64,000 nt of DNA from Puniceicoccales bacterium (GCA_031283895.1 JAITAV010000024.1:10980-74979), one strand, 5' to 3'; shown: positions 5,590 through 17,584, counted from the stretch's first letter. A program made the numbers and translations. Notes: generated by a model not told the origin, from the letters alone.

Positions 5590-6791
5590 CTAGAGTTCAG
5601 CCTTTCTTAAAATTTGCAGGACTTTTAAAATATGAAGTAAGTAAAAAATTATCTGAACGCAAGTTAATAACGTCAAGAATGTTATAAAAGTCAGTGACAT
5701 CATCTTCTGAACTACAAACACAAAAAATAAACCTACAAAAAAGCAAAAATGCCAGTTACAAAAAAATCTATTTTCCGAATACAGAATAGGGATTTGTTTG
5801 AAAGACGAAGACACAAAATAGAAAAAACCGCCAACAGATAAGATACGTAATGAGTTTCTATCTATACTCCATTTTGCATCAATTAAATGATGGCAAATTA
5901 GGTCAGAGAAAAGAGCAATTAATGCAAAACCAACAAATCCAACAACAAAAATACACAAAAACAGCTTTTTTTGAAAAGAGAATACTAGACGTTTCAATTG
6001 TAATCTTTCTCCTACTTCTTGAAAGATAACATCGCTTATCTTGTTAGCAAGAGCAGAAATAGGATAGTTTACAATCCTTGTTAGCAAACCAAATAATCCA
6101 ACATAATGAAAATTAAAGCAAAACGGCAGTAATAAAATTGGAAACTGTTGCCTTAATTGATTGAAAAAACAACCCACATAAATGTTCCATTGCCGAATTC
6201 CATCATTTTTAATTATGCTACCCATTTCGTGCAAGCTGGGGACAGTTCTCAAAGAGAATAACCAATATCCAAAGCTAATAAAACATGGAATAATTAGGCT
6301 AGTAATATATCCTATAATAAGGCCATGTTGATGCTGCAAAACTAGCGCTGCAATTGGAAAACAAACGCCTTGAAAAATTTGAAGATACGCACTAAGCTTA
6401 TAATCTCCTTTTTTGTTATTATAAATAAAAAATGCTTCAGAGGAAAAAAGAAAAAAAGAAAAGAAAAGAAAGGAATGTAGTAATATAATTTATATTGAAT
6501 GGGTAAAAATGTATACACACATACAAGCAAAATTAAACTTAAAAAAAAAGAACAAACGAATGATGCCAATAGCAAATCGTTTGCCTTTTTTACTGAGCAT
6601 TTAGGAATTATCCACTCTATACGTAGTCCTAATATTACACAAAATAATTGACTTATACTCATAATAAAATAAAAAGAACCAAATAAGGCAGGAGGGTATT
6701 TTTTTGTTAAAAAAGGTATTAATATTACACCAGTTAATTGAGAAATCCATAAAGATATACTTATTAATGATAATTTTCGTATGAACATCAT
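5590..6791 (-). pseudogene. wzx: Wzx-type (MOP superfamily) flippase interrupted by a frameshift
   Basis: ORFs 6342..6791 (N-terminal, MMFIRKLSLISISLWISQLTGVILIPFLTKKY) and 5590..6339 together give ~400 aa of polytopic protein. The downstream frame is open back to 6490 and overlaps the upstream frame within a T-rich tract (plus-strand A6 6444-6449, A7 6451-6457). Confidence 0.55.
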
Positions 6792-7309
6792 ATCATTTGG
6801 GGTTTTTATATATCTTTTTTGTGAAATGTCTCGATTTTTTTGTCATCGAGGATTTGTGGTCAAGGTTGGTGTTATTATCAATATATACATACAATTTTCC
6901 ATACAAGCCTATTATTTGTATGGACTTTTTTAATTTTGCTTTTGTTGTCGTATTATGAATTATAGGAAGTAAGAAGCAATTATGATAAGTGTAATTATTT
7001 ATATTATTTGTCTATGTATTTTACTTATATGGCTGTTTTATTTATCGACAAAAATTGGATTTGGCTTTATTTTAAAAAGCATAATTGTTTTTGTGAGCAT
7101 TTATATGTTTTTTGTTTGGTATTTTTGTAGCCTTATTAGAAATTTTTATTGCTTTACGTAAGAGGTGTTAGTTATGGATAAAGGAATATTATATCCTATG
7201 TGTTTCCAATTATCTAATGGTCTCATCATTAGTATATTAAACTCTATGATAAAAGGTGGCTTAGGGATCTCGCTATTCCTACTTTTTATTATATACTGTT
7301 GCGAAAAAA

Positions 7310-8017
7310 ATGTTAATTATTGAATTTTGTGGAGGAACAAGTGTTGGTAAAACAACGCTTATCAAAGAATTAAACTTGCAATCAAAGCGTGTCATTACAG
7401 CATACAATTACATTTTTCAGTGGTTAAAAATACGCCGTACGAAATGGACTTACATATTTATTTTACATCCATTTTTATATTTTCATTTTTTAAGATTATG
7501 TATCCGTAAAAGGTATTTTTTTGCATTTTTTTTTTCATATTTTTAAGAAGCCAAAGTATCCATTTATAATTAAATTGAAACTTTGCAATAATCTCATAAG
7601 AACTTTCGGTACTGCCTTTTTTTGAATGGGCACAACACTTACCAAAACTATGACATAATCATAATAGATGAAGGGCCGATACAAATAATTAATAGTATGG
7701 TTACTACATTTCATGATAAAGTAAATATAAATTACCCATTAAACAAACAATTACTTTCAAAATTGCCCCATGAATTATTTTTCAAAATTATTATTATATA
7801 TGACAGTGACAAAAATGTAGCTATTAGATCGTTAAAAAGGGGTGACGCTGCCTTGGGTTGTAAACATTTATCTTATCGAGAATGGTTGTGCTTCGCAAAA
7901 AATAATAGAAAAAACTTTGAATATTTAGAATCTTTATTAAATGACAAAATTACATGTGTTATTCGCTCACAAAATAAATTAAATATTCTAAGGGAAAAAT
8001 TAAATATTAATATCTAA
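7310..8017 (+). pseudogene. P-loop NTPase/kinase-like gene broken by two homopolymer frameshifts
   Basis: Walker A GGTSVGKTT (7310 ORF) and Walker B IIIIDEGP (7622 ORF) lie in the same frame. The intervening segment is open only in another frame. The junctions fall at T10 (7526-7535) and T7 (7617-7623); T9 and T8 would restore one ~235-aa ORF. Confidence 0.55.
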
Positions 8018-9495
8018 TGAAGGCATTAAAGGCATTAATAGAAGTTTTGAATGTAATCAATAATGCCGGAATAAACTATTGCCATTGGAAGTCAAATAAC
8101 AATTTAGGCGATTCATTGCAAGGAAATAGTGATCTTGATATTTTAGTTACCTCAAGCGATCTACATAAATTAAAATCCATTTTATTACAAAATGGGTTTG
8201 TTGAAATGTATACGCTAACATCTAAATATCAACCAGGAATTTACCATTTTTACAAATTTGATACAGAATGTTCAAAAATTATACACTTTCATTTGTTTGT
8301 GGATCTTATTACAGGTAATGGGGTAGTTAAAAATTTTCACCTCCCATTTCGTGATATGTTATTAAAAGAAACTCGTCTGCATAAAAATTTGATCCTTGTT
8401 CCAAGCTTAGAAGCTGAATTTGTTGTATTTATTTTTCGTTTATTAAGCAAACAAGGAAACTTATTTGATTTTCGAAATTTTTTGAAAGAAAAAAAGCAAA
8501 TTATGGATGAATTTAAAACTTTTATAAAACACATCAGTTGTAAAAAAGTATTGGTTTTATTGCAGTCTCATCACGCAAACGAATTTTTGGTGCCATTTTA
8601 TCACCAAGCTGTACAATATTTGAAAGCAAAATCTTGGATTAGATTATTTATATTGGGGATAAAATTTAAACGAACTGCAAATTGGTATAGGTATCCATGT
8701 TTTGTTGCCATGTATATGGAAATGAAAACGATTTTTCGATATTTATGCTGTAAGATGAGAAAAGAGAATACTGTACGTTTTGGTTCCCCAACACCCATTG
8801 TAGTCCTTATTGGAGGCCCTGCATCAGGCAAAACTACACTCACAAAAAATATTACAAAAATTTTGCACCCTTATTTAGACGTACACTACTTCCATGTTGG
8901 AAAACCCGAAGCATCTTGGATATTTTGTTGGATACGCTTTTTTTTACCATTAATGAGAAAAATGTTACCACACCACACATCAACTTACCTTGAAAAAACG
9001 CAACAATTGGGCACTTTGGTAGAGTTTTCCTACTTACACGTTTTCAGAAAGCTTATTCTTGCATACGAACGTAAAAAACTAATAACGAAAATTGTCAGAA
9101 AATCAATGTCCGGATCCTTATGTTTATGCGATCGATATCCGTTGAATAATAAATTTTTAACAGATGGTAGTACTTTTTCCGATCATGATATTGCTTTTGA
9201 ACATTCAAATTTCAAACGCATGTTAATGCGCATGGAAAAAAGAATTTACCAAACTTTTCCAAAACCAAATTTGACATTTTTTTTAAAGACATCTCCTAAA
9301 GTTGCACTTTTGAGAAACAATACCCGTCTTCAATCTTATAAAGATGAAACATATTTATTATTTAGACATAAACTTTTATGTGAAATTGAAAAATTCTATG
9401 ATGGAGATTCTTCGTTTTATATAATAAACACAGAAACTATGGGAGAAGAACACTGTTCTAATTTTATTATCAGTTCTATTTTGAAAAATATTTAG
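8017..9495 (+). CDS. two-domain protein: N-terminal nucleotidyltransferase-fold region plus C-terminal P-loop kinase-like domain
   Basis: TAATG overlap with the upstream gene. N-terminus INYCHWKSNNNLGDSLQGNSDLDILV resembles Pol-beta-type NTase motifs. C-terminal Walker A VVLIGGPASGKTTL followed by CDRYP, as in dNK/thymidylate-kinase-like folds. Confidence 0.55.
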   Translation: MKALKALIEVLNVINNAGINYCHWKSNNNLGDSLQGNSDLDILVTSSDLHKLKSILLQNGFVEMYTLTSKYQPGIYHFYKFDTECSKIIHFHLFVDLITGNGVVKNFHLPFRDMLLKETRLHKNLILVPSLEAEFVVFIFRLLSKQGNLFDFRNFLKEKKQIMDEFKTFIKHISCKKVLVLLQSHHANEFLVPFYHQAVQYLKAKSWIRLFILGIKFKRTANWYRYPCFVAMYMEMKTIFRYLCCKMRKENTVRFGSPTPIVVLIGGPASGKTTLTKNITKILHPYLDVHYFHVGKPEASWIFCWIRFFLPLMRKMLPHHTSTYLEKTQQLGTLVEFSYLHVFRKLILAYERKKLITKIVRKSMSGSLCLCDRYPLNNKFLTDGSTFSDHDIAFEHSNFKRMLMRMEKRIYQTFPKPNLTFFLKTSPKVALLRNNTRLQSYKDETYLLFRHKLLCEIEKFYDGDSSFYIINTETMGEEHCSNFIISSILKNI

Positions 9496-9505
9496 AAAAC
9501 TTATG

Positions 9506-10177
9506 TTAAGTAAATGTAACTATAAAATGCGATTCAAATAACAGGTATCCTCCATCGGAAACGTATCGATGGCACTTTTGAAAATAATCATCAATCGATT
9601 GCTTTGTGTTATGATCATATGTAGAGTGGTTAGCAAAAGATAAAACGACATCGTAGGATTGTTCATAATTAAATTCTTCAAAAGTACCCGCCCAAAATTT
9701 AGCATTGTCCCGTTTGAGGAAACTTTTTGCGCAATTGGCAACTTGAATCAGGTAAGGATTGATGTCAAATCCTTCAATTTTCTTACATAAGGGTGCGATT
9801 TCTAAAGCAAGAAAACCAGCATTTGTTCCAATATCTAAAACAGTTTTACCCGCAATATATTTTTCCCATTGCATACCAGCGATGCGTGCTTCGGTATTTC
9901 TAAAACCTGTAATATGAATAAGACGGCAGGACTGATAAAAATATCCTTCACCATAATCATAAGACGTGTATTCTCGTAATTGAGCTTCTAGAATTTTCGC
10001 GATTTCATAATGTAAAGATAATTGCTTCCGAATCCTAAAATAATCCTTAAGCCTATTTAAAATAGCCTGCTTTTTAGCTTTATCTTTCGATTTTGAAGAA
10101 TCTTGCAAAAACACACCACACGCCTTTAATGGGTTAAATGTTTCGTAAAGTAGCGAAAAATAACTCTTGCTGCTCAT
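9506..10177 (-). CDS. class I SAM-dependent methyltransferase
   Basis: Motif I GKTVLDIGTNAGFLALEIAP, then IEGFDINP and YDVVLSF. Confidence 0.75.
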   Translation of the reverse strand: MSSKSYFSLLYETFNPLKACGVFLQDSSKSKDKAKKQAILNRLKDYFRIRKQLSLHYEIAKILEAQLREYTSYDYGEGYFYQSCRLIHITGFRNTEARIAGMQWEKYIAGKTVLDIGTNAGFLALEIAPLCKKIEGFDINPYLIQVANCAKSFLKRDNAKFWAGTFEEFNYEQSYDVVLSFANHSTYDHNTKQSIDDYFQKCHRYVSDGGYLLFESHFIVTFT

Positions 10178-10196: not shown

Positions 10197-11354
10197 TTAA
10201 AAATTTTGTAAAGTTTTTTTGAGTTGATTTAAAATATAGGCCGCCCCTTGGTGAGCGGATTGGCTCCAATTAAAAACATGTTGCTCCCGTAAAGTACAGA
10301 GGCGCTGACGCCATTCCTCTCGCCGTATTAATAAGTCATCCAGTAAATATGGAAGTGTGGAACACTGTGCAAGCGGTACCTCGATACCAATTTCTCTGCG
10401 CAGAGCAATTTCCATAGGTTCTATTTGCAAATCTTGCCAGCGAGAATTGTGTTTTTTAAGTGGTGTTTCCATGAATATAACCGGACGTTCGGTTCCAAAA
10501 GCGTATTCGAATGCAATACCGGAACGATCTGTAATGAGCACATCCGCATCGTATAAGTTTTCTTCCGAAAGAAGCCGATCTTCCCAAATAAAATGGGCCA
10601 AAGATGCAATTTTATGTTGCAAATGGGATGCTTGCCGTGGACACCGTTTCAAAAACTCTGGATGTGGACGCAAGACAATCGTATAATTCAAAGGTGCCAA
10701 AACTTCTATGAGTAATTCAATGCCATTTTTAAGCAAACTCGCTACACCCCAAGTAGGTGCAATTAGAATTTTTCTGACCTCTTTATCGTGTTTACAAGGT
10801 CTTTGCCGAAAAGCTTGATATACAACATCCATACGTGGATAGCCTATAGGTAACAACTTTTTGTGAGGCAAATGATACAAATTTTCTCGCTTTTGGATTT
10901 CCCGTACATGGTGTGGACCAACACAGAAGATTGTATCGTAAGCGTCAAATGCGTGTTCATTATACTGAAGGTGTGTGCTCGAAAACGCATGAAATAGATA
11001 TATGTATTCTTGCGTATGCGGTGACTTTTTTAAATGATAAGTGTTTAGGTCGGGCATTGTAAAAACAAAAATCTGCGCATCCATTTTATCAAATACCGAC
11101 TTCAAAAAATGCTTGAAAAAAAATGGATACAAGCGCTCATGATGTCGCAACAATAGAGGATCATTCGGATCCGATGTAATATATGAACATGAAATATCTG
11201 AGTCTTGTAAAATTTCTCCGATGAAAGGCGCAAACGTTTGGAAGTAAATATCACGCTCGGAGTAAAAAACCAGACTGCGATGCCGACGATATTCTTTGCT
11301 GAAAAAAAGTTTGTAATTTTTATACTCTGTTTGCAGATTAGAAAACCAAGACAT
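10197..11354 (-). CDS. TagB/TagF-family CDP-alcohol (glycerophospho)transferase-like protein
   Basis: KILIAPTWG, VLRPHPEF, DADVLITDRSGIAFEYAFGTERPVIFM match the CDP-glycerol glycerophosphotransferase pattern. Start at ATG 11354, or 11438 as in the ORF track. Confidence 0.7.
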   Translation of the reverse strand: MSWFSNLQTEYKNYKLFFSKEYRRHRSLVFYSERDIYFQTFAPFIGEILQDSDISCSYITSDPNDPLLLRHHERLYPFFFKHFLKSVFDKMDAQIFVFTMPDLNTYHLKKSPHTQEYIYLFHAFSSTHLQYNEHAFDAYDTIFCVGPHHVREIQKRENLYHLPHKKLLPIGYPRMDVVYQAFRQRPCKHDKEVRKILIAPTWGVASLLKNGIELLIEVLAPLNYTIVLRPHPEFLKRCPRQASHLQHKIASLAHFIWEDRLLSEENLYDADVLITDRSGIAFEYAFGTERPVIFMETPLKKHNSRWQDLQIEPMEIALRREIGIEVPLAQCSTLPYLLDDLLIRREEWRQRLCTLREQHVFNWSQSAHQGAAYILNQLKKTLQNF

Positions 11355-14300
11355 GGTCAATATGGGCGTATTTAAGCAACAAGTAATTATTTTAGGTGCC
11401 GGTAAGTCAAAACAATTTTTCGAAAATCCATCCATCATTCATGTGGATCAAGAAACATGCACCTTAGATTGGCTACTCAATGCATTCGATAAAACAATCA
11501 CACGTTATTTGTTTGTGGGAGGATACAAGATGGATGAAATCACCCATCGCTATCCCCATTTGCACTTTGTCGTAAATCCCATTTGGAAACATTCAGGGTG
11601 CATAGAGTCATTGCATTTATCAGATTTTGACCCACAATTACCCGCTTTCGTCTGTTACGGCGATATTTTAGTGCGTCCCGAATTGGTTAAGGATATCTTG
11701 CAAGCGGCTCGGCAAGATGATGTTGATGTTGTATTTGCACTCGATTCGGATCCTAAAACAATTGCAACAAAACCTGATTGCGAATACATCCATTGCAATT
11801 TTAATGGAAATTCTACCGATGGTAAGCAAAACTTTATTGGACTTATTTATTTGAAGCCGAATGTATTGCAGCAATTAAAGAATAATTTTCCATTGGGTTC
11901 GACTCACCAGCGTTTATCGGGGTTATTACCCTATTTTTTACAAAATAAATTTAACATCCAAACGGTGGAAGCACATGGATTATGGGTGGAAGTTCAACAG
12001 CCGGGTGACGTAGCTCGTTTTATTCTCACCACCAAGGCCCAAACTTTACATACCTTAAAACATCGCATTACCAAGGCAAAGATAGCGGAACAAGTACACT
12101 TTTCGGTTCAAGAGTGGCAAAACAATCGACAAACTATACTCGATATTTTAAAACAAACTTTTGGAAAAAAATTGCTCGTTGTCCGCAGTAGTTCGTTGCA
12201 AGAAGACGGGTTTTCAAAAGCCAATGCCGGAAGGTTTACAAGTGTTATTGACGTCCAAATGCGCGATGCCGATTTAATGCAAGCTGTGGAAGCCGTTATT
12301 GCTTCTTACGGTCAAGCGATGACCCAAGAAGATCAAGTATTGGTGCAACCTATGTTGCAAAATGTAGACGCTTGCGGTGTTGTCTTTACGCGTACGTTGA
12401 ACTATGGGGCTCCTTATTACATCGTAAATTACGACATAGAAAATACGACAGCCGTCACAAGCGGCATCAGCGATAGCGATTGTATTTTTTATCACTGGAA
12501 AACAGCACCTATCCCTAAAAATGCCCCTTATTTCTTCAAAGATTTATACGAAGCCATTCAAGAGATTGAATTTTTGACACAATTTGATGCTTTAGACATT
12601 GAATTTGCGATCACAAAGACGCACGAATTGTACATCTTTCAAGTACGTCCGCTCGCTGCACAACATTTACGTGAAATTGATGACAGCCGATTGCAAGAAC
12701 AATTGCAACAAGCATCCAAGCGATTTGAAGACATGCAGCAGGCGCACCCTGGGATAAGTGGCAATCGAACCATCTTTGGGATCATGCCCGATTGGAATCC
12801 TGCAGAAATTGTTGGTATTAAACCGAGAACATTGGCCATAACCCTTTATCAACAATTGATCACTCATGAAATTTGGGCGCAACAACGACATGAATTTGGA
12901 TATAAAGATGTACGTCCATATCCACTTATCGTATGTTTTTCCGGACACCCATACGTGGATGTCCGTGCCAGTATTCATTCTTTTTTGCCTGCAAACTTAA
13001 AACAATCTACTACAGAAAAACTCGTTCACTATTACCTGAATCGCCTTTCGACACATCCCGAATGGCATGACAAACTCGAATTTATGGTCATGCCCACATG
13101 CTACACGTTCGACTTTGAAGACCGTTGGCACACGGCTTTAACACGCGAAGCCGGTTTATCGGAAGACGAATTTGAATCTTACAAGCAAAATTTGTTGCAT
13201 TTAACGCAGGATGCCTTTCAAAAATGTACGGAACAATACAAGGCAACCGGGTCCATAGATGAACAATTTGAAGCTATTCAACGGGTACCGTTGTCGGACT
13301 TAGATCGTCTGTACGTATTATTCGAAACGTGTAAACGAGGAACGTTAAATTTTTCCCACTTGGCACGCTGCGGTTTTATCGCCAGTGCTTTTTTAAATTC
13401 CTCTTTGGCCAAAAACATGCTTACGGAGGCCGAAAAAGAAGCGCTTTTGGGCGACATTCAAACCATTACGGGAACATTTTTTGAAGAGACAAAAAAAGTG
13501 CTTAATGGTCAAGTTTCCCGTACCCATTTCATTTGTAAATATGGACATCTAAGACCGGGTACGTACGATATTACGTCTCCAGCGTACAAAGTGGATCCCG
13601 ATAAATACTTATTTGGGCACTCGGGACAACAGGTTGCGACGGTGATAACTCCTAAAAACACATTCCATAATCCAACCTTCGAAAAGATTTTATCGGACAC
13701 GCTGTCGGTTTCGTTGGATACCTTTAAACATTTTTTACAACAGGCAATTGCGGGTCGCGAATATTCCAAATTTGTTTTCACAAGGTACGTTTCTGAAATC
13801 CTGGATATCCTCGAACGTTTAGGACAGAGGTACGGGCTTTCTGCAGACGATGTTTCTTACCTTCCCATTACAACGTGGTTGGACTTGCGCAACGGTATTG
13901 CAAGTGACGGTAAAACAAAATGGCTTTTAAGGACACAAATTGAGTATCAAAAAGAGTATCATCAAGTTGCCCAGTGTATCGAATTGCCACCGTTAATACT
14001 GCAACAAAGTGACTTTTTCTCATTCTTTGTGCCTAAAACTTTACCCAATTTCATTGGCAACCAGTGCGTCGAAGCACCCCTTGTTTACTTAAAAAATTCA
14101 AACGAAACCAACGGTGATAGCCTACGTCATAAAATCGTACTGATTGAAAAGGCAGATCCCGGATTCGATTGGATATTTAATTACGAGATTGCCGGACTCA
14201 TCACGGTGTACGGAGGACCCAATTCGCACATGGCGATTCGTTCGGCCGAATTTAAATTGCCGGCCAGCATTGGCATTGGTAATACACTTTTTAACACGTT

Positions 14301-14361
14301 AAAAACGGCCCAATGGGTACAACTGGATTGCAACATTCATACCTTGAAAGTTGTACGCTAA
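11353..14361 (+). CDS. fusion protein: nucleotidyltransferase-like domain + PPDK_N ATP-grasp + swivelling phosphohistidine domain (Cj1418-like amide kinase candidate)
   Basis: N-terminus VIILGAGKSKQF... (GT-A/NTP-transferase-like). Middle LLVVRSSSLQEDGFSKANAGRFTSV and GVVFTRTLNYGAPYYIVNYD (PEP/pyruvate-binding). C-terminus GLITVYGGPNSHMAIRSAEFKLPASIG (PEP-utilizer mobile domain). Confidence 0.75.
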   Translation: MVNMGVFKQQVIILGAGKSKQFFENPSIIHVDQETCTLDWLLNAFDKTITRYLFVGGYKMDEITHRYPHLHFVVNPIWKHSGCIESLHLSDFDPQLPAFVCYGDILVRPELVKDILQAARQDDVDVVFALDSDPKTIATKPDCEYIHCNFNGNSTDGKQNFIGLIYLKPNVLQQLKNNFPLGSTHQRLSGLLPYFLQNKFNIQTVEAHGLWVEVQQPGDVARFILTTKAQTLHTLKHRITKAKIAEQVHFSVQEWQNNRQTILDILKQTFGKKLLVVRSSSLQEDGFSKANAGRFTSVIDVQMRDADLMQAVEAVIASYGQAMTQEDQVLVQPMLQNVDACGVVFTRTLNYGAPYYIVNYDIENTTAVTSGISDSDCIFYHWKTAPIPKNAPYFFKDLYEAIQEIEFLTQFDALDIEFAITKTHELYIFQVRPLAAQHLREIDDSRLQEQLQQASKRFEDMQQAHPGISGNRTIFGIMPDWNPAEIVGIKPRTLAITLYQQLITHEIWAQQRHEFGYKDVRPYPLIVCFSGHPYVDVRASIHSFLPANLKQSTTEKLVHYYLNRLSTHPEWHDKLEFMVMPTCYTFDFEDRWHTALTREAGLSEDEFESYKQNLLHLTQDAFQKCTEQYKATGSIDEQFEAIQRVPLSDLDRLYVLFETCKRGTLNFSHLARCGFIASAFLNSSLAKNMLTEAEKEALLGDIQTITGTFFEETKKVLNGQVSRTHFICKYGHLRPGTYDITSPAYKVDPDKYLFGHSGQQVATVITPKNTFHNPTFEKILSDTLSVSLDTFKHFLQQAIAGREYSKFVFTRYVSEILDILERLGQRYGLSADDVSYLPITTWLDLRNGIASDGKTKWLLRTQIEYQKEYHQVAQCIELPPLILQQSDFFSFFVPKTLPNFIGNQCVEAPLVYLKNSNETNGDSLRHKIVLIEKADPGFDWIFNYEIAGLITVYGGPNSHMAIRSAEFKLPASIGIGNTLFNTLKTAQWVQLDCNIHTLKVVR

Positions 14362-14960
14362 TGACAACAAAAATAGGAATTACACAACGTGTGGAAACGG
14401 TAGAAGCATACGCTGAAGTGCGCGATGCTTTGGATCAGCGTTGGTACCGTCTATTTGCACCACTCAGTACCGTATTGATACCGATTCCAAACGCGATGGA
14501 AAAAATGAATGTTTATTTCCGCGAGTGTAATTTTGACGGTTTTGTATTAACTGGAGGCAATCACCATCCTCTGCGCGATCGTTGCGAGCAGGATATCCTT
14601 AACTACGCCGTAAAACAACAAAAACCCGTGTTAGGCGTGTGTCACGGTATGCAATTTATGTCAAAATACTTCAAGGCGCCATTAGTACTTATAGACAATC
14701 ACGTAGGCGAACATACCATCACGATTCAGGCTAACCGTTGGGGATTTCCGGAAGGTATATGCACGGTTAACTCATATCATCGCCACGCCCTCTCATGCAT
14801 ACCCACTAACTTTACGGGCTTTGCATTTGACAAAGACGGTTACTGCGAAGCCATGCAACATAACACACTTCCGTTTGTAACCTGCATGTGGCATCCGGAA
14901 CGCGATACGTCGCTTCCAACCTGGTTTCATATCTTCCTAAAAAAATTGTTCCAAGCATGA
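14361..14960 (+). CDS. class I glutamine amidotransferase / peptidase C26-like hydrolase
   Basis: TAATG coupling to the upstream gene. Nucleophile elbow PVLGVCHGMQF and MWHPERD (Cys-His-Glu triad). Confidence 0.8.
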   Translation: MTTKIGITQRVETVEAYAEVRDALDQRWYRLFAPLSTVLIPIPNAMEKMNVYFRECNFDGFVLTGGNHHPLRDRCEQDILNYAVKQQKPVLGVCHGMQFMSKYFKAPLVLIDNHVGEHTITIQANRWGFPEGICTVNSYHRHALSCIPTNFTGFAFDKDGYCEAMQHNTLPFVTCMWHPERDTSLPTWFHIFLKKLFQA

Positions 14961-15694
14961 CATCTCCTCAAGTTTTTATCTTATGTGCCGGTGAAGGGCG
15001 GCGACTGCGGCCCCTCACCGAAGACAAACCTAAATGCTTGGTTCCTTATAGGAATAAACCGATTTTGCAGTACCAATTAGAAATTATTAAAACACTGCAA
15101 TTAAACGATGTTACCCTTATTGGAGGACATCGGCATGAAGTTTTGCCCAATACGTACGCCAAAATTGTCAATGCACGCTACGCAGAAACGAATATGCTGC
15201 ACAGTTTGTTCTGTGCAGAAAATAGGATGGATGCCTCGCGCGATATGATCGTTGCTTACGGCGACATCATTTATCACGCATCTGTTTTAAAGACATTGCT
15301 GGAAGCACACGATCCCATTGCAATTGTAACGGATGTAGATTGGGAACGCTACTGGCAAAATCGCATGGAAGATCCTTTACAAGATGCAGAAACGTTTCGT
15401 TGGGATCCCCATACACGTCGTATTTTCGAATTGGGAAGAAAACCTAAATTGCAATCCGACATTCAGGGCCAGTACATCGGCTTATTTAAAATCGACGCAT
15501 CGTACGTGACAACTTTTAAAACTTTCCATCATCATTTTTGTCAAACACATGCGAATGCAGAAAAAGCCTACATGACCGATTTTTTACAGTATCTCATCGA
15601 TCAGCAACAACCTGCATTCGGTATTCCCATCCACAACCGATGGGCGGAATTCGATACCGTACAAGATCTGCAAGTGACAGTTGATTTTTTATGA
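14957..15694 (+). CDS. sugar/phospho-substrate nucleotidyltransferase (cytidylyltransferase-like)
   Basis: ATGA coupling. FILCAGEGRRLRPLTEDKPKCLV is the GxGxRL NTP-transferase signature. Confidence 0.8.
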   Translation: MTSPQVFILCAGEGRRLRPLTEDKPKCLVPYRNKPILQYQLEIIKTLQLNDVTLIGGHRHEVLPNTYAKIVNARYAETNMLHSLFCAENRMDASRDMIVAYGDIIYHASVLKTLLEAHDPIAIVTDVDWERYWQNRMEDPLQDAETFRWDPHTRRIFELGRKPKLQSDIQGQYIGLFKIDASYVTTFKTFHHHFCQTHANAEKAYMTDFLQYLIDQQQPAFGIPIHNRWAEFDTVQDLQVTVDFL

Positions 15695-16730
15695 AACAGG
15701 GGACGAAAAACACAATTCTAGGGATATTGCTCCCATTTTTTTGGATTATTTTTACCTACAATCAAAACCACGGCTACTTTACAAGCTGTTATGAACTTTT
15801 ATGGCAGGTAGGTTTAATTTTACTTTCATTACATGGATTTTTATCATTTTTACGTATACCCTACCGTTATACCTGGATTGTATGGATCAGTGTGTTGGTT
15901 CCCCTAGGGAATTTATCTGTTTTCACCGACAGTTTCGTTCGTCTTATTATTGCGTGTACAGGCTGCTTTATTGTTCGAAAAATACCTAGTTTTAAATTTG
16001 CCGTTAGTATGATCGTTTTATTGCTGTGTCTGAACACGTTTCAACTGATACGGCAAAACTTAACTGCCCATAAAGAAGCGCAAGTACATTTACCGGATGT
16101 AAAAAATTCCACACTCCAGAAACTTCCCATAATATTTACTGGATTATCTGCGATGCATACGTAAGTCGATTCATTTTACAGCGCTATTATAATTACGAAA
16201 ATGCTCCATTTTATGATCAATTACAGGCATTAGGATTTAATACACTCGATGGTCATACTGAACATTATCCAACACTCCGTGCCATCAATACTTATCTCCA
16301 AAATGTTATTGCCGCGAATCCCTCTACACTCTCTTCTTTGACACTCCATCATATGTTAAAAAAAACTCCACTGTTCAAAGTTTGTAAAGAACGTGGATGG
16401 ATATTGCACATCTTAGAACCTCGATTCCCATTTTTGCATATGTTGTGTCGAAAAATCGACATAACCAAAAAGATTTACCAGTCGTACAATGAAATATTTT
16501 CAAAAGCGACGTCAAATGTATTACTGCAAAGTACTGGATGGGAATGCATTTTGTTCTTGTTTACAATGCATCTTTCCAATTTGCAATCCAATGTCGTTTC
16601 TTTTAACACTTTAGGATATAAATGGATGAACACACTATTAAAAGCACAATCATTAATGCCGTCTGATCTGCAACAAAATGTTTTCGTTCAAACATTGTAC
16701 ACCGAATTACTTCCCCAATGGCTTTCATAA
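15691..16730 (+). pseudogene. membrane-anchored alkaline-phosphatase/sulfatase-superfamily transferase, frameshifted and C-terminally short (paralog of 22408..23841)
   Basis: ORF 15691..16164 (4-5 TM helices, ...VHLPDVKNSTLQKLP) continues in another frame as HNIYWIICDAYVSRF...YENAPFYDQLQALGF. This parallels LPITKNQNISKYPNIYHIILDAYTNY...NSDFYNALEQLGF of the paralog. The shift is at the C3 tract 16126-16128. It lacks the paralog's C-terminal HGDHG region. Confidence 0.5.
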
Positions 16731-17584
16731 TGAAAACCTTAGAAATAACCGTTTTAGCTTACGAAGGGCCCATTTATCGAACTTACATGAGCATCTTAAA
16801 TGCATTGGGTTATAGGGTAAAAAGGATTATTAAATTATATAATGGACACGATAAACTGCGTTGGCTACTTCGCTATTGGCGTAATAACTTATTGTACATC
16901 AAAGAAGCTTTATCTAACAATTATTGGCCTACTTATTTTATCAAAAGAAAAGAAATCTTTGAACCTATACGGCAAACAATCCTACAAAATTATCACTTAC
17001 CCAACACATTTTTTAGTTTATTTTCACAAGGTAACTTTAACGTCCATGTCTTTTCGGAAGAATGCATTTATTGTGAGTGCGGACCTACAGGATTCAAAAG
17101 TGATAACCTTTTTGACTTATTAAGAAGCCTAGGACCTCAAACGTATCTTTTTACAGGTGGGGGTCTAGTACCTCAACGTATTCTCGAATTACCACAAACG
17201 CAATTTGTGCACATTCATCCGGGGTATTTACCCTACGTACGTGGTGCCGATGGTATTCTATGGTCTACACTTATCCGTAAAAAACCAGGTGCCGCATGCT
17301 TTTACATGGTACCGCAATTGGATGAAGGAAACCTTATTTTTACAGAAGAACTACCGGCGTTGCATTTTAACATCCCTGCGTACCAAGATTTGAAAACATT
17401 GTACCGTCTACCGTTTTCATTTTACGATCCGGCGGTACGCGCCGTCCTCTTAAAGCGCGTTTTGGAAGCATTTGGCACACTAACCAACTTACCCACACGA
17501 CCACAAGACATTGCACAAGGGATTACCTACCATTTTATGCACGATATGCTCCAAGAAAAAGTATTCAAACAGATATTTGTGTAA
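16730..17584 (+). CDS. formyltransferase-fold protein (sugar N-formyl/acyl transferase candidate)
   Basis: FVHIHPGYLPYVRGADGILW ... VPQLDEGNLI resembles the N(x)H(P/G)SLLPxxRG ... D motifs of Fmt/PurN/ArnA-type formyltransferases, with His in place of the usual Asn. TAATG coupling to the upstream gene. Confidence 0.6.
   Translation: MKTLEITVLAYEGPIYRTYMSILNALGYRVKRIIKLYNGHDKLRWLLRYWRNNLLYIKEALSNNYWPTYFIKRKEIFEPIRQTILQNYHLPNTFFSLFSQGNFNVHVFSEECIYCECGPTGFKSDNLFDLLRSLGPQTYLFTGGGLVPQRILELPQTQFVHIHPGYLPYVRGADGILWSTLIRKKPGAACFYMVPQLDEGNLIFTEELPALHFNIPAYQDLKTLYRLPFSFYDPAVRAVLLKRVLEAFGTLTNLPTRPQDIAQGITYHFMHDMLQEKVFKQIFV

Follow-up and report, generated by a model that had tools for sequence, protein, structure and literature searches.

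A three-gene cassette of the Campylobacter phosphoramidate type

Does a Puniceicoccales bacterium decorate a surface polysaccharide with phosphoramidate, as Campylobacter jejuni does when it modifies its capsule with O-methyl phosphoramidate (MeOPN)? The question is raised by three consecutive genes in a DNA stretch of 64,000 nucleotides (GCA_031283895.1, JAITAV010000024.1:10980-74979), here called the window, in which positions are counted from the first letter. In C. jejuni, the donor pathway comprises the L-glutamine kinase Cj1418, the gamma-glutamyl-CDP-amidate hydrolase Cj1417 (CDP, cytidine diphosphate), the CTP:phosphoglutamine cytidylyltransferase Cj1416 (CTP, cytidine triphosphate) and the cytidine diphosphoramidate kinase Cj1415 (PMC6429109, PMC9561416). 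These reviews, together with a summary of the Borg preprint and general knowledge, served as our source for the pathway chemistry. The three genes of the window are orthologous to those of Cj1418, Cj1417 and Cj1416, keep their order and catalytic residues, co-occur in other bacteria and are under purifying selection. It is likely that they make a CDP-activated phosphoramidate donor for a surface polysaccharide and that they belong to a sister branch of the Campylobacter system which does without Cj1415.

All three open reading frames (ORFs) lie on the plus strand. Gene 1 (11353-14361), delimited by ORF calling and domain search, encodes a fusion protein of 1002 aa, gene 2 (14361-14960) a Cj1417-type hydrolase of the class-I amidotransferase fold (199 aa) and gene 3 (14957-15694) a Cj1416-type nucleotidyltransferase (245 aa). 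Direct reading of the sequence placed the start of gene 2 at the ATG inside a TAATG junction with gene 1 (14359-14363) and the start of gene 3 at the ATG inside an ATGA junction with gene 2 (14957-14960), which confirmed the translational coupling proposed in the initial annotation. Both internal starts are backed by alignment with Cj1417 (MFIGITQRL) and Cj1416 (MNAIILAAG). The window constitutes a surface-polysaccharide locus, with genes for a DegT aminotransferase, a Bac_transf initiating transferase, RmlB, RmlA and UDP-glucose dehydrogenase, and the protein closest to the kinase (90% identity) comes, by its annotation, from a metagenome-assembled genome of Puniceicoccales (Verrucomicrobiota). 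Every part of the cassette is under purifying selection: compared with L003, the locus of an 88%-identical relative, the ratio of nonsynonymous to synonymous substitution rates (dN/dS) is 0.15 for the N-terminal domain of protein 1, 0.09 for its kinase body, 0.13 for the hydrolase and 0.10 for the nucleotidyltransferase.

A C. jejuni reference was obtained with a degenerate pattern derived from a published cj1415 primer (PMC3907429), which pulled out the metagenome contig L008. The proteins of L008 and of L009, the full C. jejuni locus that was used for direct comparison, exactly matched those named gamma-glutamyl-CDP-amidate hydrolase, CTP:phosphoglutamine cytidylyltransferase and cytidine diphosphoramidate kinase by NCBI. 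When applied to genome contigs, the degenerate cj1415 pattern gave two chance matches only and a scan with the cj1420 primer CS-1246 gave none, while a search with a 144-aa fragment of Cj1418 returned short fragments only. Against the authentic C. jejuni locus, the proposed Cj1418-Cj1417-Cj1416 set was found in the same order, at 36%, 27-28% and 37% identity, respectively. The likeness to the MeOPN pathway thus covers an orthologous kinase body, hydrolase and cytidylyltransferase, the gene order, the tight coupling and the setting in a surface-polysaccharide locus. The window differs in that its kinase carries an extra domain of ~226 aa paralogous to Cj1416 and in that it contains no Cj1415-type 3'-kinase.

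The kinase body of protein 1

Residues ~227-1002 of protein 1 (within 11353-14361, plus strand) form a Cj1418-type kinase body made up of an ATP-grasp domain, a helical substrate domain and a swivelling phosphohistidine domain; Pfam placed PPDK_N at residues 233-321 and the PEP-utilizers swivel domain at residues 927-994. The phosphohistidine motif is GGPNSHMAIRSAE, in which His959 is encoded at 14227-14229. This residue stands 43 positions from the C-terminus, close to the ~40 expected in the initial annotation, and aligns with His737 of Cj1418, which stands 42 positions from its own C-terminus and which is reportedly the catalytic residue in the work of Taylor et al. 2017. Residues 220-993 are colinear with residues 1-771 of Cj1418 (35.9% identity over 792 columns, E value of 3e-159). 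The NF004508 (PRK05849) model scored 875 bits on the window kinase, covering model positions 5-788 of 789, with a cutoff of 501 and a score of 1172 for Cj1418 itself. Although NF004508 is a curated equivalog model that matches Cj1418, it carries the name 'hypothetical protein'.

The AlphaFold 2 model of the 1002-aa protein (pLDDT, the predicted local distance difference test score, 91; pTM, the predicted template modelling score, 0.87) combines a body like that of rifampin phosphotransferase (RPH), at ~14% identity, with an N-terminal nucleotidyltransferase domain of the RmlA/PntC type, and Foldseek matched the kinase body to RPH-Lm with an E value of 1e-20. A sequence search of the PDB with the kinase gave no match, and structures of Cj1416, Cj1417 and Cj1418 for comparison were likewise not found. 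With RPH and the phosphoenolpyruvate (PEP) synthase and pyruvate phosphate dikinase (PPDK) enzymes, the kinase shares the three-domain fold and the phosphohistidine swivel mechanism, as indicated by Foldseek, PEP-utilizers and PPDK_N; it differs from these dikinases in sequence, in its substrate domain and in its genomic context. The RPH-like fold, the database names 'choline kinase', 'PEP-utilizing enzyme' and 'phosphoenolpyruvate synthase' given to such proteins and the fact that LicC is the nearest solved structure to gene 3 could be taken to mean that the genes form a choline-phosphate/LicC-type, PEP-synthase or antibiotic-phosphotransferase system. We consider this scarcely credible, as PEP-synthase models reached at most 51 bits on the window kinase against 875 for the Cj1418 family model, the rifamycin phosphotransferase model did not match it, Pfam searches found no choline-kinase domain and gene 3 matches Cj1416 from end to end at 37% identity. 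By score as well as by identity (36% versus ~14%), the kinase sides with Cj1418 and not with PEP synthase or antibiotic phosphotransferases. Its 1002 aa depart from the single-function layout of ~780 aa in C. jejuni, but the difference is one of architecture and the kinase bodies are alike. The prediction that the body of protein 1 is a Cj1418-type L-glutamine kinase is therefore well supported by sequence comparison.

The predicted hydrolase and cytidylyltransferase

Protein 2 matches the Pfam families GATase and Peptidase_C26. Its Cys94 in GVCHGMQ (codon 14640-14642) and its His178 and Glu180 in WHPE (14892-14900) align with the catalytic triad of Cj1417, to which it is 27-28% identical (E value of 3e-26). 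Its best NCBIfam family is NF045546 with 118 bits, the next family reaching 44; the score of Cj1417 itself is 328 and the equivalog cutoff, which protein 2 fails, is 250. Protein 2 is thus predicted to be a gamma-glutamyl-CDP-amidate hydrolase. Protein 3 belongs to the Pfam family NTP_transferase and has an intact GxGxRL...PK loop, in which GEGRRL is found at residue 12 and the Lys of PK at residue 25. NCBIfam holds no dedicated hidden Markov model for the Cj1416-type enzyme; the comparison with Cj1416 itself (full-length match with 37% identity over 250 aa, E value of 8e-66) points to protein 3 as a predicted CTP:phosphoglutamine cytidylyltransferase.

The cassette might instead activate something other than a phosphoramidate, either because the kinase acts on another amide or amine or because a TagF-like enzyme transfers phospho-glutamine from CDP-glutamine while the hydrolase acts elsewhere. 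Identities of only 27-37% to the characterised enzymes and a hydrolase below its equivalog cutoff leave room for this, as do the usual habit of TagF enzymes, which move alditol phosphates from CDP-alditols, and the existence of relatives outside glycan loci, namely in a biosynthetic cluster (L012) and as a solitary gene (L010), both described below. We regard it as improbable, since all three enzymes are kept together in a fixed order in both branches, including C. jejuni, and since the hydrolase retains its catalytic Cys, His and Glu and finds its best family in the CDP-amidate hydrolases by a wide margin (118 versus 44 bits). Because the comparisons of kinase, hydrolase and nucleotidyltransferase brought up nothing that contradicts it, the core interpretation of the three genes as a phosphoramidate-donor cassette stands.

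The fused N-terminal domain

What sets the window apart is the domain formed by residues ~1-226 of protein 1 (within 11353-14361, plus strand), a nucleotidyltransferase-like domain with the altered nucleoside triphosphate (NTP) loop ILGAGKSKQF. NTP_transf_3 of Pfam matches residues 11-131 with 25 bits, just below the gathering score of 27. In a profile-to-profile comparison, the N-domain family proved paralogous, over the full length, to the Cj1416/gene-3 family in particular (hhalign probability 100%, E value of 1.7e-40, 222 columns), with which it shares the motifs N..W..T(G/N)...SL, Y.DI, D..W...R....E and W.E...DL. The NTP loop has changed from AAGxGxRL....PK to GAG(K/R)P..G...(S/A)L, which makes it shorter by 5 residues and leaves the PK position without its Lys. 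The pocket residues are at least 90% conserved, Asp104 is 97% conserved and the Gly-loop 81-88%, and GAG is usually followed by a basic residue; a few divergent members have no Gly-loop, such as P0205, in which the GAG loop is absent.

As a separate Cj1416 orthologue is always retained beside the fusion (37-43% identity in the seven fused loci described below), the N-domain does not replace Cj1416. The fold common to the N-domain and gene 3 is that of the LicC, PntC and GMPPA-GMPPB nucleotidyltransferases. In the last of these, the active enzyme GMPPB is accompanied by the regulatory, motif-altered paralogue GMPPA, which may offer an analogy to gene 3 and the N-domain; here, however, the altered paralogue is fused to the first enzyme of the pathway and not to its active counterpart. 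We favour the view, which is speculative, that the N-domain binds glutamine phosphate, CDP-glutamine or CDP-amidate as its ligand and serves as a sensor or hand-off module.

The fusion turned out to be widespread. A word-indexed search with protein 1 yielded 2,955 relatives, and the best 120 are, with few exceptions, 990-1060 aa long with 99% coverage. Among these 120 are proteins from Puniceicoccales, Opitutales, Halomonas, Natronospira, Pseudomonas, Legionella septentrionalis, Marinobacter, Motiliproteus, Saprospiraceae and Nitrospinota, so that the named fused examples fall into Verrucomicrobiota, Gammaproteobacteria, Bacteroidota and Nitrospinota; some relatives carry the JGI label 'glutamine kinase'. 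The kinase body gave 1,542 matches at an E value of 1e-30 or lower against 1.84 billion representatives clustered at 50% identity. Within the best 150 of these, 113 are long forms (at least 930 aa, with an N-terminal extension of ~200-250 residues), almost all with the nucleotidyltransferase-like domain, and 33 are unfused, with no Campylobacter among the names of the unfused representatives. The initial annotation was therefore right about the extra nucleotidyltransferase-like domain, but not about its novelty, as the fused form is common in the databases. The searchable literature contained no account of the fused architecture nor of a characterised bacterial pathway of this kind beyond Campylobacter, and a review from 2022 termed the kinase 'C. 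jejuni-specific' (PMC9561416). Collectively, the cassette represents a known pathway in an uncharacterised variant form, not a system of a categorically new kind.

Gene order and complementarity with Cj1415

To place the window among related cassettes, we compared seven fused loci, namely the window, L001 (Legionella), L002 (Pseudomonas), L003, L004 (Saprospiraceae), L005 (Natronospira) and L015, with five unfused cassettes, namely L009 of C. jejuni, L011, L012, L013 and L014. Nearly all of these 12 cassettes are situated within polysaccharide loci. The order kinase-hydrolase-nucleotidyltransferase was found in 7/7 fused loci, which represent at least 3 phyla, and in 4/5 unfused cassettes, the exception being L012, which has no nucleotidyltransferase nearby. 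A gene of the Cj1415-type APS-kinase fold accompanies 5/5 unfused cassettes and 0/7 fused loci, where it was sought by BLAST in 7/7 and with a Cj1415-type profile in 6/7 (the window and L001-L005). In the window, there was no BLAST match to Cj1415 anywhere and no profile match among the ORFs of at least 90 aa in the first 26 kb, in line with the earlier remark that no Cj1415 equivalent is adjacent.

The Cj1415-type gene lies immediately 5' of the kinase gene in L012, L013 and L014. In two further proteins, P0236 and P0243, a Cj1415-type APS-kinase domain (38-41% identity; 185 bits on NF004041 for P0236) is fused to the N-terminus of the kinase, where it occupies the position of the nucleotidyltransferase-like domain in the window. 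The Cj1415-type cassettes L011, L013 and L014 and the fused P0236 and P0243 thus have the same three core enzymes as the window, and L011 and L013 also share with it an accessory pair of TagF-like and formyltransferase-like genes. They differ in that a Cj1415-type kinase, encoded by a 5' gene of its own or fused N-terminally, takes the place of the nucleotidyltransferase-like N-domain, and in that they form a separate block of the kinase tree. When the kinase bodies were arranged by neighbour joining, Cj1418 fell into one block of ~22 leaves with the unfused forms and the APS-kinase fusions, and the NTase-fused forms (NTase, nucleotidyltransferase) made up the remainder. The complementarity is real, yet it stems essentially from a single ancient split and not from repeated switching. 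Scattered 'unfused' leaves within the fused block were considered as domain losses, but this was rejected, as at least one of them, L015, is a split gene call with the N-domain encoded just upstream across a stop or frameshift. We place the locus in a large branch that is sister to the Campylobacter system and is marked by a Cj1416-derived domain on the kinase and by the absence of Cj1415.

The strict complementarity with Cj1415 and the shared N-terminal or 5' position could also mean that the N-domain is a working enzyme that replaces the Cj1415 step, through cis-channelling or a second nucleotidyl or phosphoryl transfer, so that the donor would be an activated phosphoramidate other than cytidine diphosphoramidate or its 3'-phosphate. 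The conservation of Asp104, which is of the metal-binding type, of the Gly-loop and of the basic residue after GAG fits such a role, as does the dN/dS of 0.15. We nevertheless think a catalytic N-domain unlikely, because it lacks the GxGxR Arg and the PK Lys and its loop is shortened by 5 residues, because the GAG loop is gone altogether in some members such as P0205 and because the intact Cj1416 orthologue, always present, leaves no step obviously vacant. The sensor or hand-off module thus remains the role that we favour.

Three side observations concern members of the wider family. In the Cj1415-type cassette L011, a gene for an Inositol_P (CysQ-like) phosphatase lies between the hydrolase and nucleotidyltransferase genes (L011:10900-11658), which fits the removal of a 3'-phosphorylated nucleotide by-product. 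At L012:7468-10945, a nonribosomal peptide synthetase/polyketide synthase cluster includes genes for a Cj1415-like kinase, for an unfused glutamine kinase and for a hydrolase; judged by these genes, its product may be a P-N-containing natural product instead of a glycan decoration. Finally, a Coxiellaceae member of the kinase family (L010:8001-10346; 840 bits on NF004508) has neither a hydrolase nor a nucleotidyltransferase gene nearby and is solitary, so not all members of the family are part of cassettes.

Candidate transfer and tailoring genes

Divergent from gene 1 lies a gene for a TagF-like (Glyphos_transf) phosphotransferase, listed at 10197-11438 on the minus strand but likely to span 10197-11354, with Met29 (CAT, 11352-11354) as the likely start. 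The protein matches PF04464, the TagF/TarF family, over residues 162-330 (48.4 bits, gathering score 22.1), and its dN/dS against L003 is 0.13. An all-against-all comparison of the ORFs of 12 loci showed that two families, the TagF-like one and a formyltransferase-like one, recur in the same five loci (the window, L002, L003, L011 and L013) and thereby span both architectures; in L015, a Glyphos_transf gene also adjoins the cassette, which brings the TagF-like neighbours to 6 loci. The role of transferase fits the TagF-like enzyme chemically, since it would use a CDP-linked donor and release cytidine monophosphate (CMP). The initial annotation's choice of transferase is hence credible, and by analogy we would put the chances that the TagF-like enzyme places the phosphoramidate on the polysaccharide at roughly even. 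In other fused loci, sulfatase-family or TPR genes are found where the TagF-like gene would be. Sulfatase/alkaline-phosphatase-superfamily genes flank the cassette at L002:56-1051 (Pseudomonas) and L004:14521-16041 (Saprospiraceae) and may encode alternative transferases or trimming enzymes.

The formyltransferase-like protein of the window (288 aa; 16718-17584, plus strand) has the motifs HIHPGYLPYVRGAD and DEG and scores 25 bits with Formyl_trans_N, just below the cutoff. Its family, which includes L002:8670-10031, L011:7306-8004, L013:5186-5950 and a member in L003, is characterised by the motifs HxHPGxLPxxRG and DxG, in which a His replaces the usual catalytic Asn. A third gene, 19 bp downstream of the TagF-like gene, encodes a SAM (S-adenosylmethionine)-dependent methyltransferase of 223 aa (9506-10177, minus strand; Methyltransf_31/25/11), which the initial annotation proposed as the O-methylase.

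In these accessory genes, the window departs from C. jejuni. The latter has a DUF8374+DUF2972 transferase (Cj1421/Cj1422-type), whereas the window has the TagF-like enzyme and its formyltransferase-like partner instead, and tblastn found no DUF2972-type match in the window. Likewise, C. jejuni has two Ubie-type methyltransferases (Cj1419/Cj1420), whereas the window has only the SAM methyltransferase, which is unrelated to them; no significant similarity to Cj1419/Cj1420-type enzymes was detected in the window. As this methyltransferase is also not recurrent at other cassette loci, it is a weak candidate for the O-methylase, and the label 'MeOPN-type' is conjecture as far as O-methylation is concerned. 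A plain or otherwise modified phosphoramidate is equally possible as a product.

Proposed pathway

By analogy with the C. jejuni enzymes, from which all of the chemistry is carried over, L-glutamine's amide nitrogen would probably be phosphorylated by the kinase through His959, after which the gene-3 nucleotidyltransferase would join L-glutamine phosphate and CTP to CDP-L-glutamine, and the amidotransferase-fold hydrolase would strip off glutamate to leave cytidine diphosphoramidate. The surrounding locus would supply the acceptor, a surface polysaccharide to one of whose hydroxyls the TagF-like enzyme would then attach the phosphoramidate, with release of CMP. The formyltransferase-like partner may assist in this or alter the product, which the methyltransferase next door may methylate. 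The N-domain, without the usual triphosphate-binding Arg and Lys, would sense or hand off intermediates and could so make 3'-phosphorylation unnecessary.

Several points weigh against this scheme. An identity of 36% to Cj1418 is too low for substrate specificity to be read off the sequence, and the equivalence of the hydrolase to Cj1417 is not guaranteed, as its 118 bits fall short of the NF045546 cutoff of 250. For fused-type members, both the chemistry and the glycan are extrapolated from C. jejuni only. The anticorrelation with Cj1415 carries limited statistical weight because it amounts to essentially one phylogenetic event, and the type of transferase does not explain the lost 3'-phosphorylation because TagF-like genes accompany Cj1415 in L011 and L013. 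Since Asp104 and the Gly-loop are largely conserved, the N-domain may be catalytic and not merely ligand-binding. Lastly, genes that neighbour the cassette in the window are decayed.

Breadth and possible products of the family

Non-methylated phosphoramide has been described on the lipopolysaccharide (LPS) of Xanthomonas campestris and Shewanella MR-4 (PMC3907429, PMC3210612, PMC8042644), and such products therefore exist outside Campylobacter. Whereas the literature treats the P-N decoration of glycans as a near-unique Campylobacter trait, the kinase family is large, and its commonest close form is the fused, Cj1415-less one of environmental, host-associated and opportunistic bacteria. P-N glycans are thus predicted in culturable Pseudomonas fluorescens, Legionella septentrionalis, Halomonas and Marinobacter. 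The value of the locus lies in this breadth, in the clean architectural dichotomy with Cj1415 and in the candidate transfer module, whose TagF-like enzyme is a candidate for a step that is biochemically unsettled even in C. jejuni. The locus also raises the enzymological question of what task a Cj1416 paralogue without a triphosphate loop performs and why it excludes the 3'-kinase, and the assignments made here put right the misleading annotations 'choline kinase', 'PEP synthase' and 'PEP-utilizing enzyme'.

It is conceivable, if rather doubtful, that the N-domain is a catalytic non-orthologous stand-in for Cj1415 and that, together with the TagF-like/formyltransferase-like pair, it defines a further route to P-N glycans, with a chemistry of its own and a wider distribution. 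If so, this route would employ a different activated donor or yield an N-modified phosphoramidate, would operate in Verrucomicrobiota, Pseudomonas, Legionella, Halomonas, Marinobacter, Bacteroidota and Nitrospinota, and might explain the orphan phosphoramide groups on the LPS of Xanthomonas and Shewanella.

Neighbouring genes and locus structure

Another ATGA, at 15691-15694, couples a fourth, disrupted ORF to gene 3. This ORF is the remnant of a 436-aa membrane-protein gene (15691-16445, plus strand) with a frameshift near 16090-16104, and it is shorter than its counterpart in L003. The genes at 5590-6791 (minus strand) and 7310-8017 (plus strand) are, like that at 15691-16445, split, frameshifted or shortened in the window and intact in L003, while L003 in turn has shortened TagF-like, methyltransferase and formyltransferase-like genes. 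Such damage could mean that a variable glycan locus is decaying reciprocally, or it could come from indels of the assembly. The split or shortened neighbours might suggest that the cassette in this genome is itself a decaying remnant and that the surface modification is no longer made. This we hold to be highly improbable, as the three cassette genes and the TagF-like and formyltransferase-like genes are of full length with intact catalytic motifs, dN/dS against L003 is 0.09-0.15 and the apparent frameshifts could be assembly errors.

The P-loop ORFs between 7310 and 9495 (plus strand), named in the initial annotation as candidates for the Cj1415 role, proved to be two fragments (7310-7546 and 7622-8017) and one lineage-specific protein of 492 aa (8017-9495) that combines NTP_transf_5 with a dTMP-kinase-like part. 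They were rejected as a substitute for Cj1415, to which they showed no BLAST or profile match; the 492-aa protein is partly deleted in L003, and the ORFs are absent from the other fused loci. They probably stand outside the system.

At 11352-11355, the start of the kinase gene (ATG, plus strand) and the likely start of the TagF-like gene (CAT, minus strand) overlap in a single CATG, which leaves no intergenic room for divergent promoters. A consensus promoter and terminator scan returned fewer promoter-like sites than in shuffled sequence. Finally, the stretch from 6000 to 10000, which contains the P-loop ORFs and several small hydrophobic ORFs, has a GC content of 0.28-0.31, compared with 0.39 across the window, and looks like an insertion into the glycan locus.

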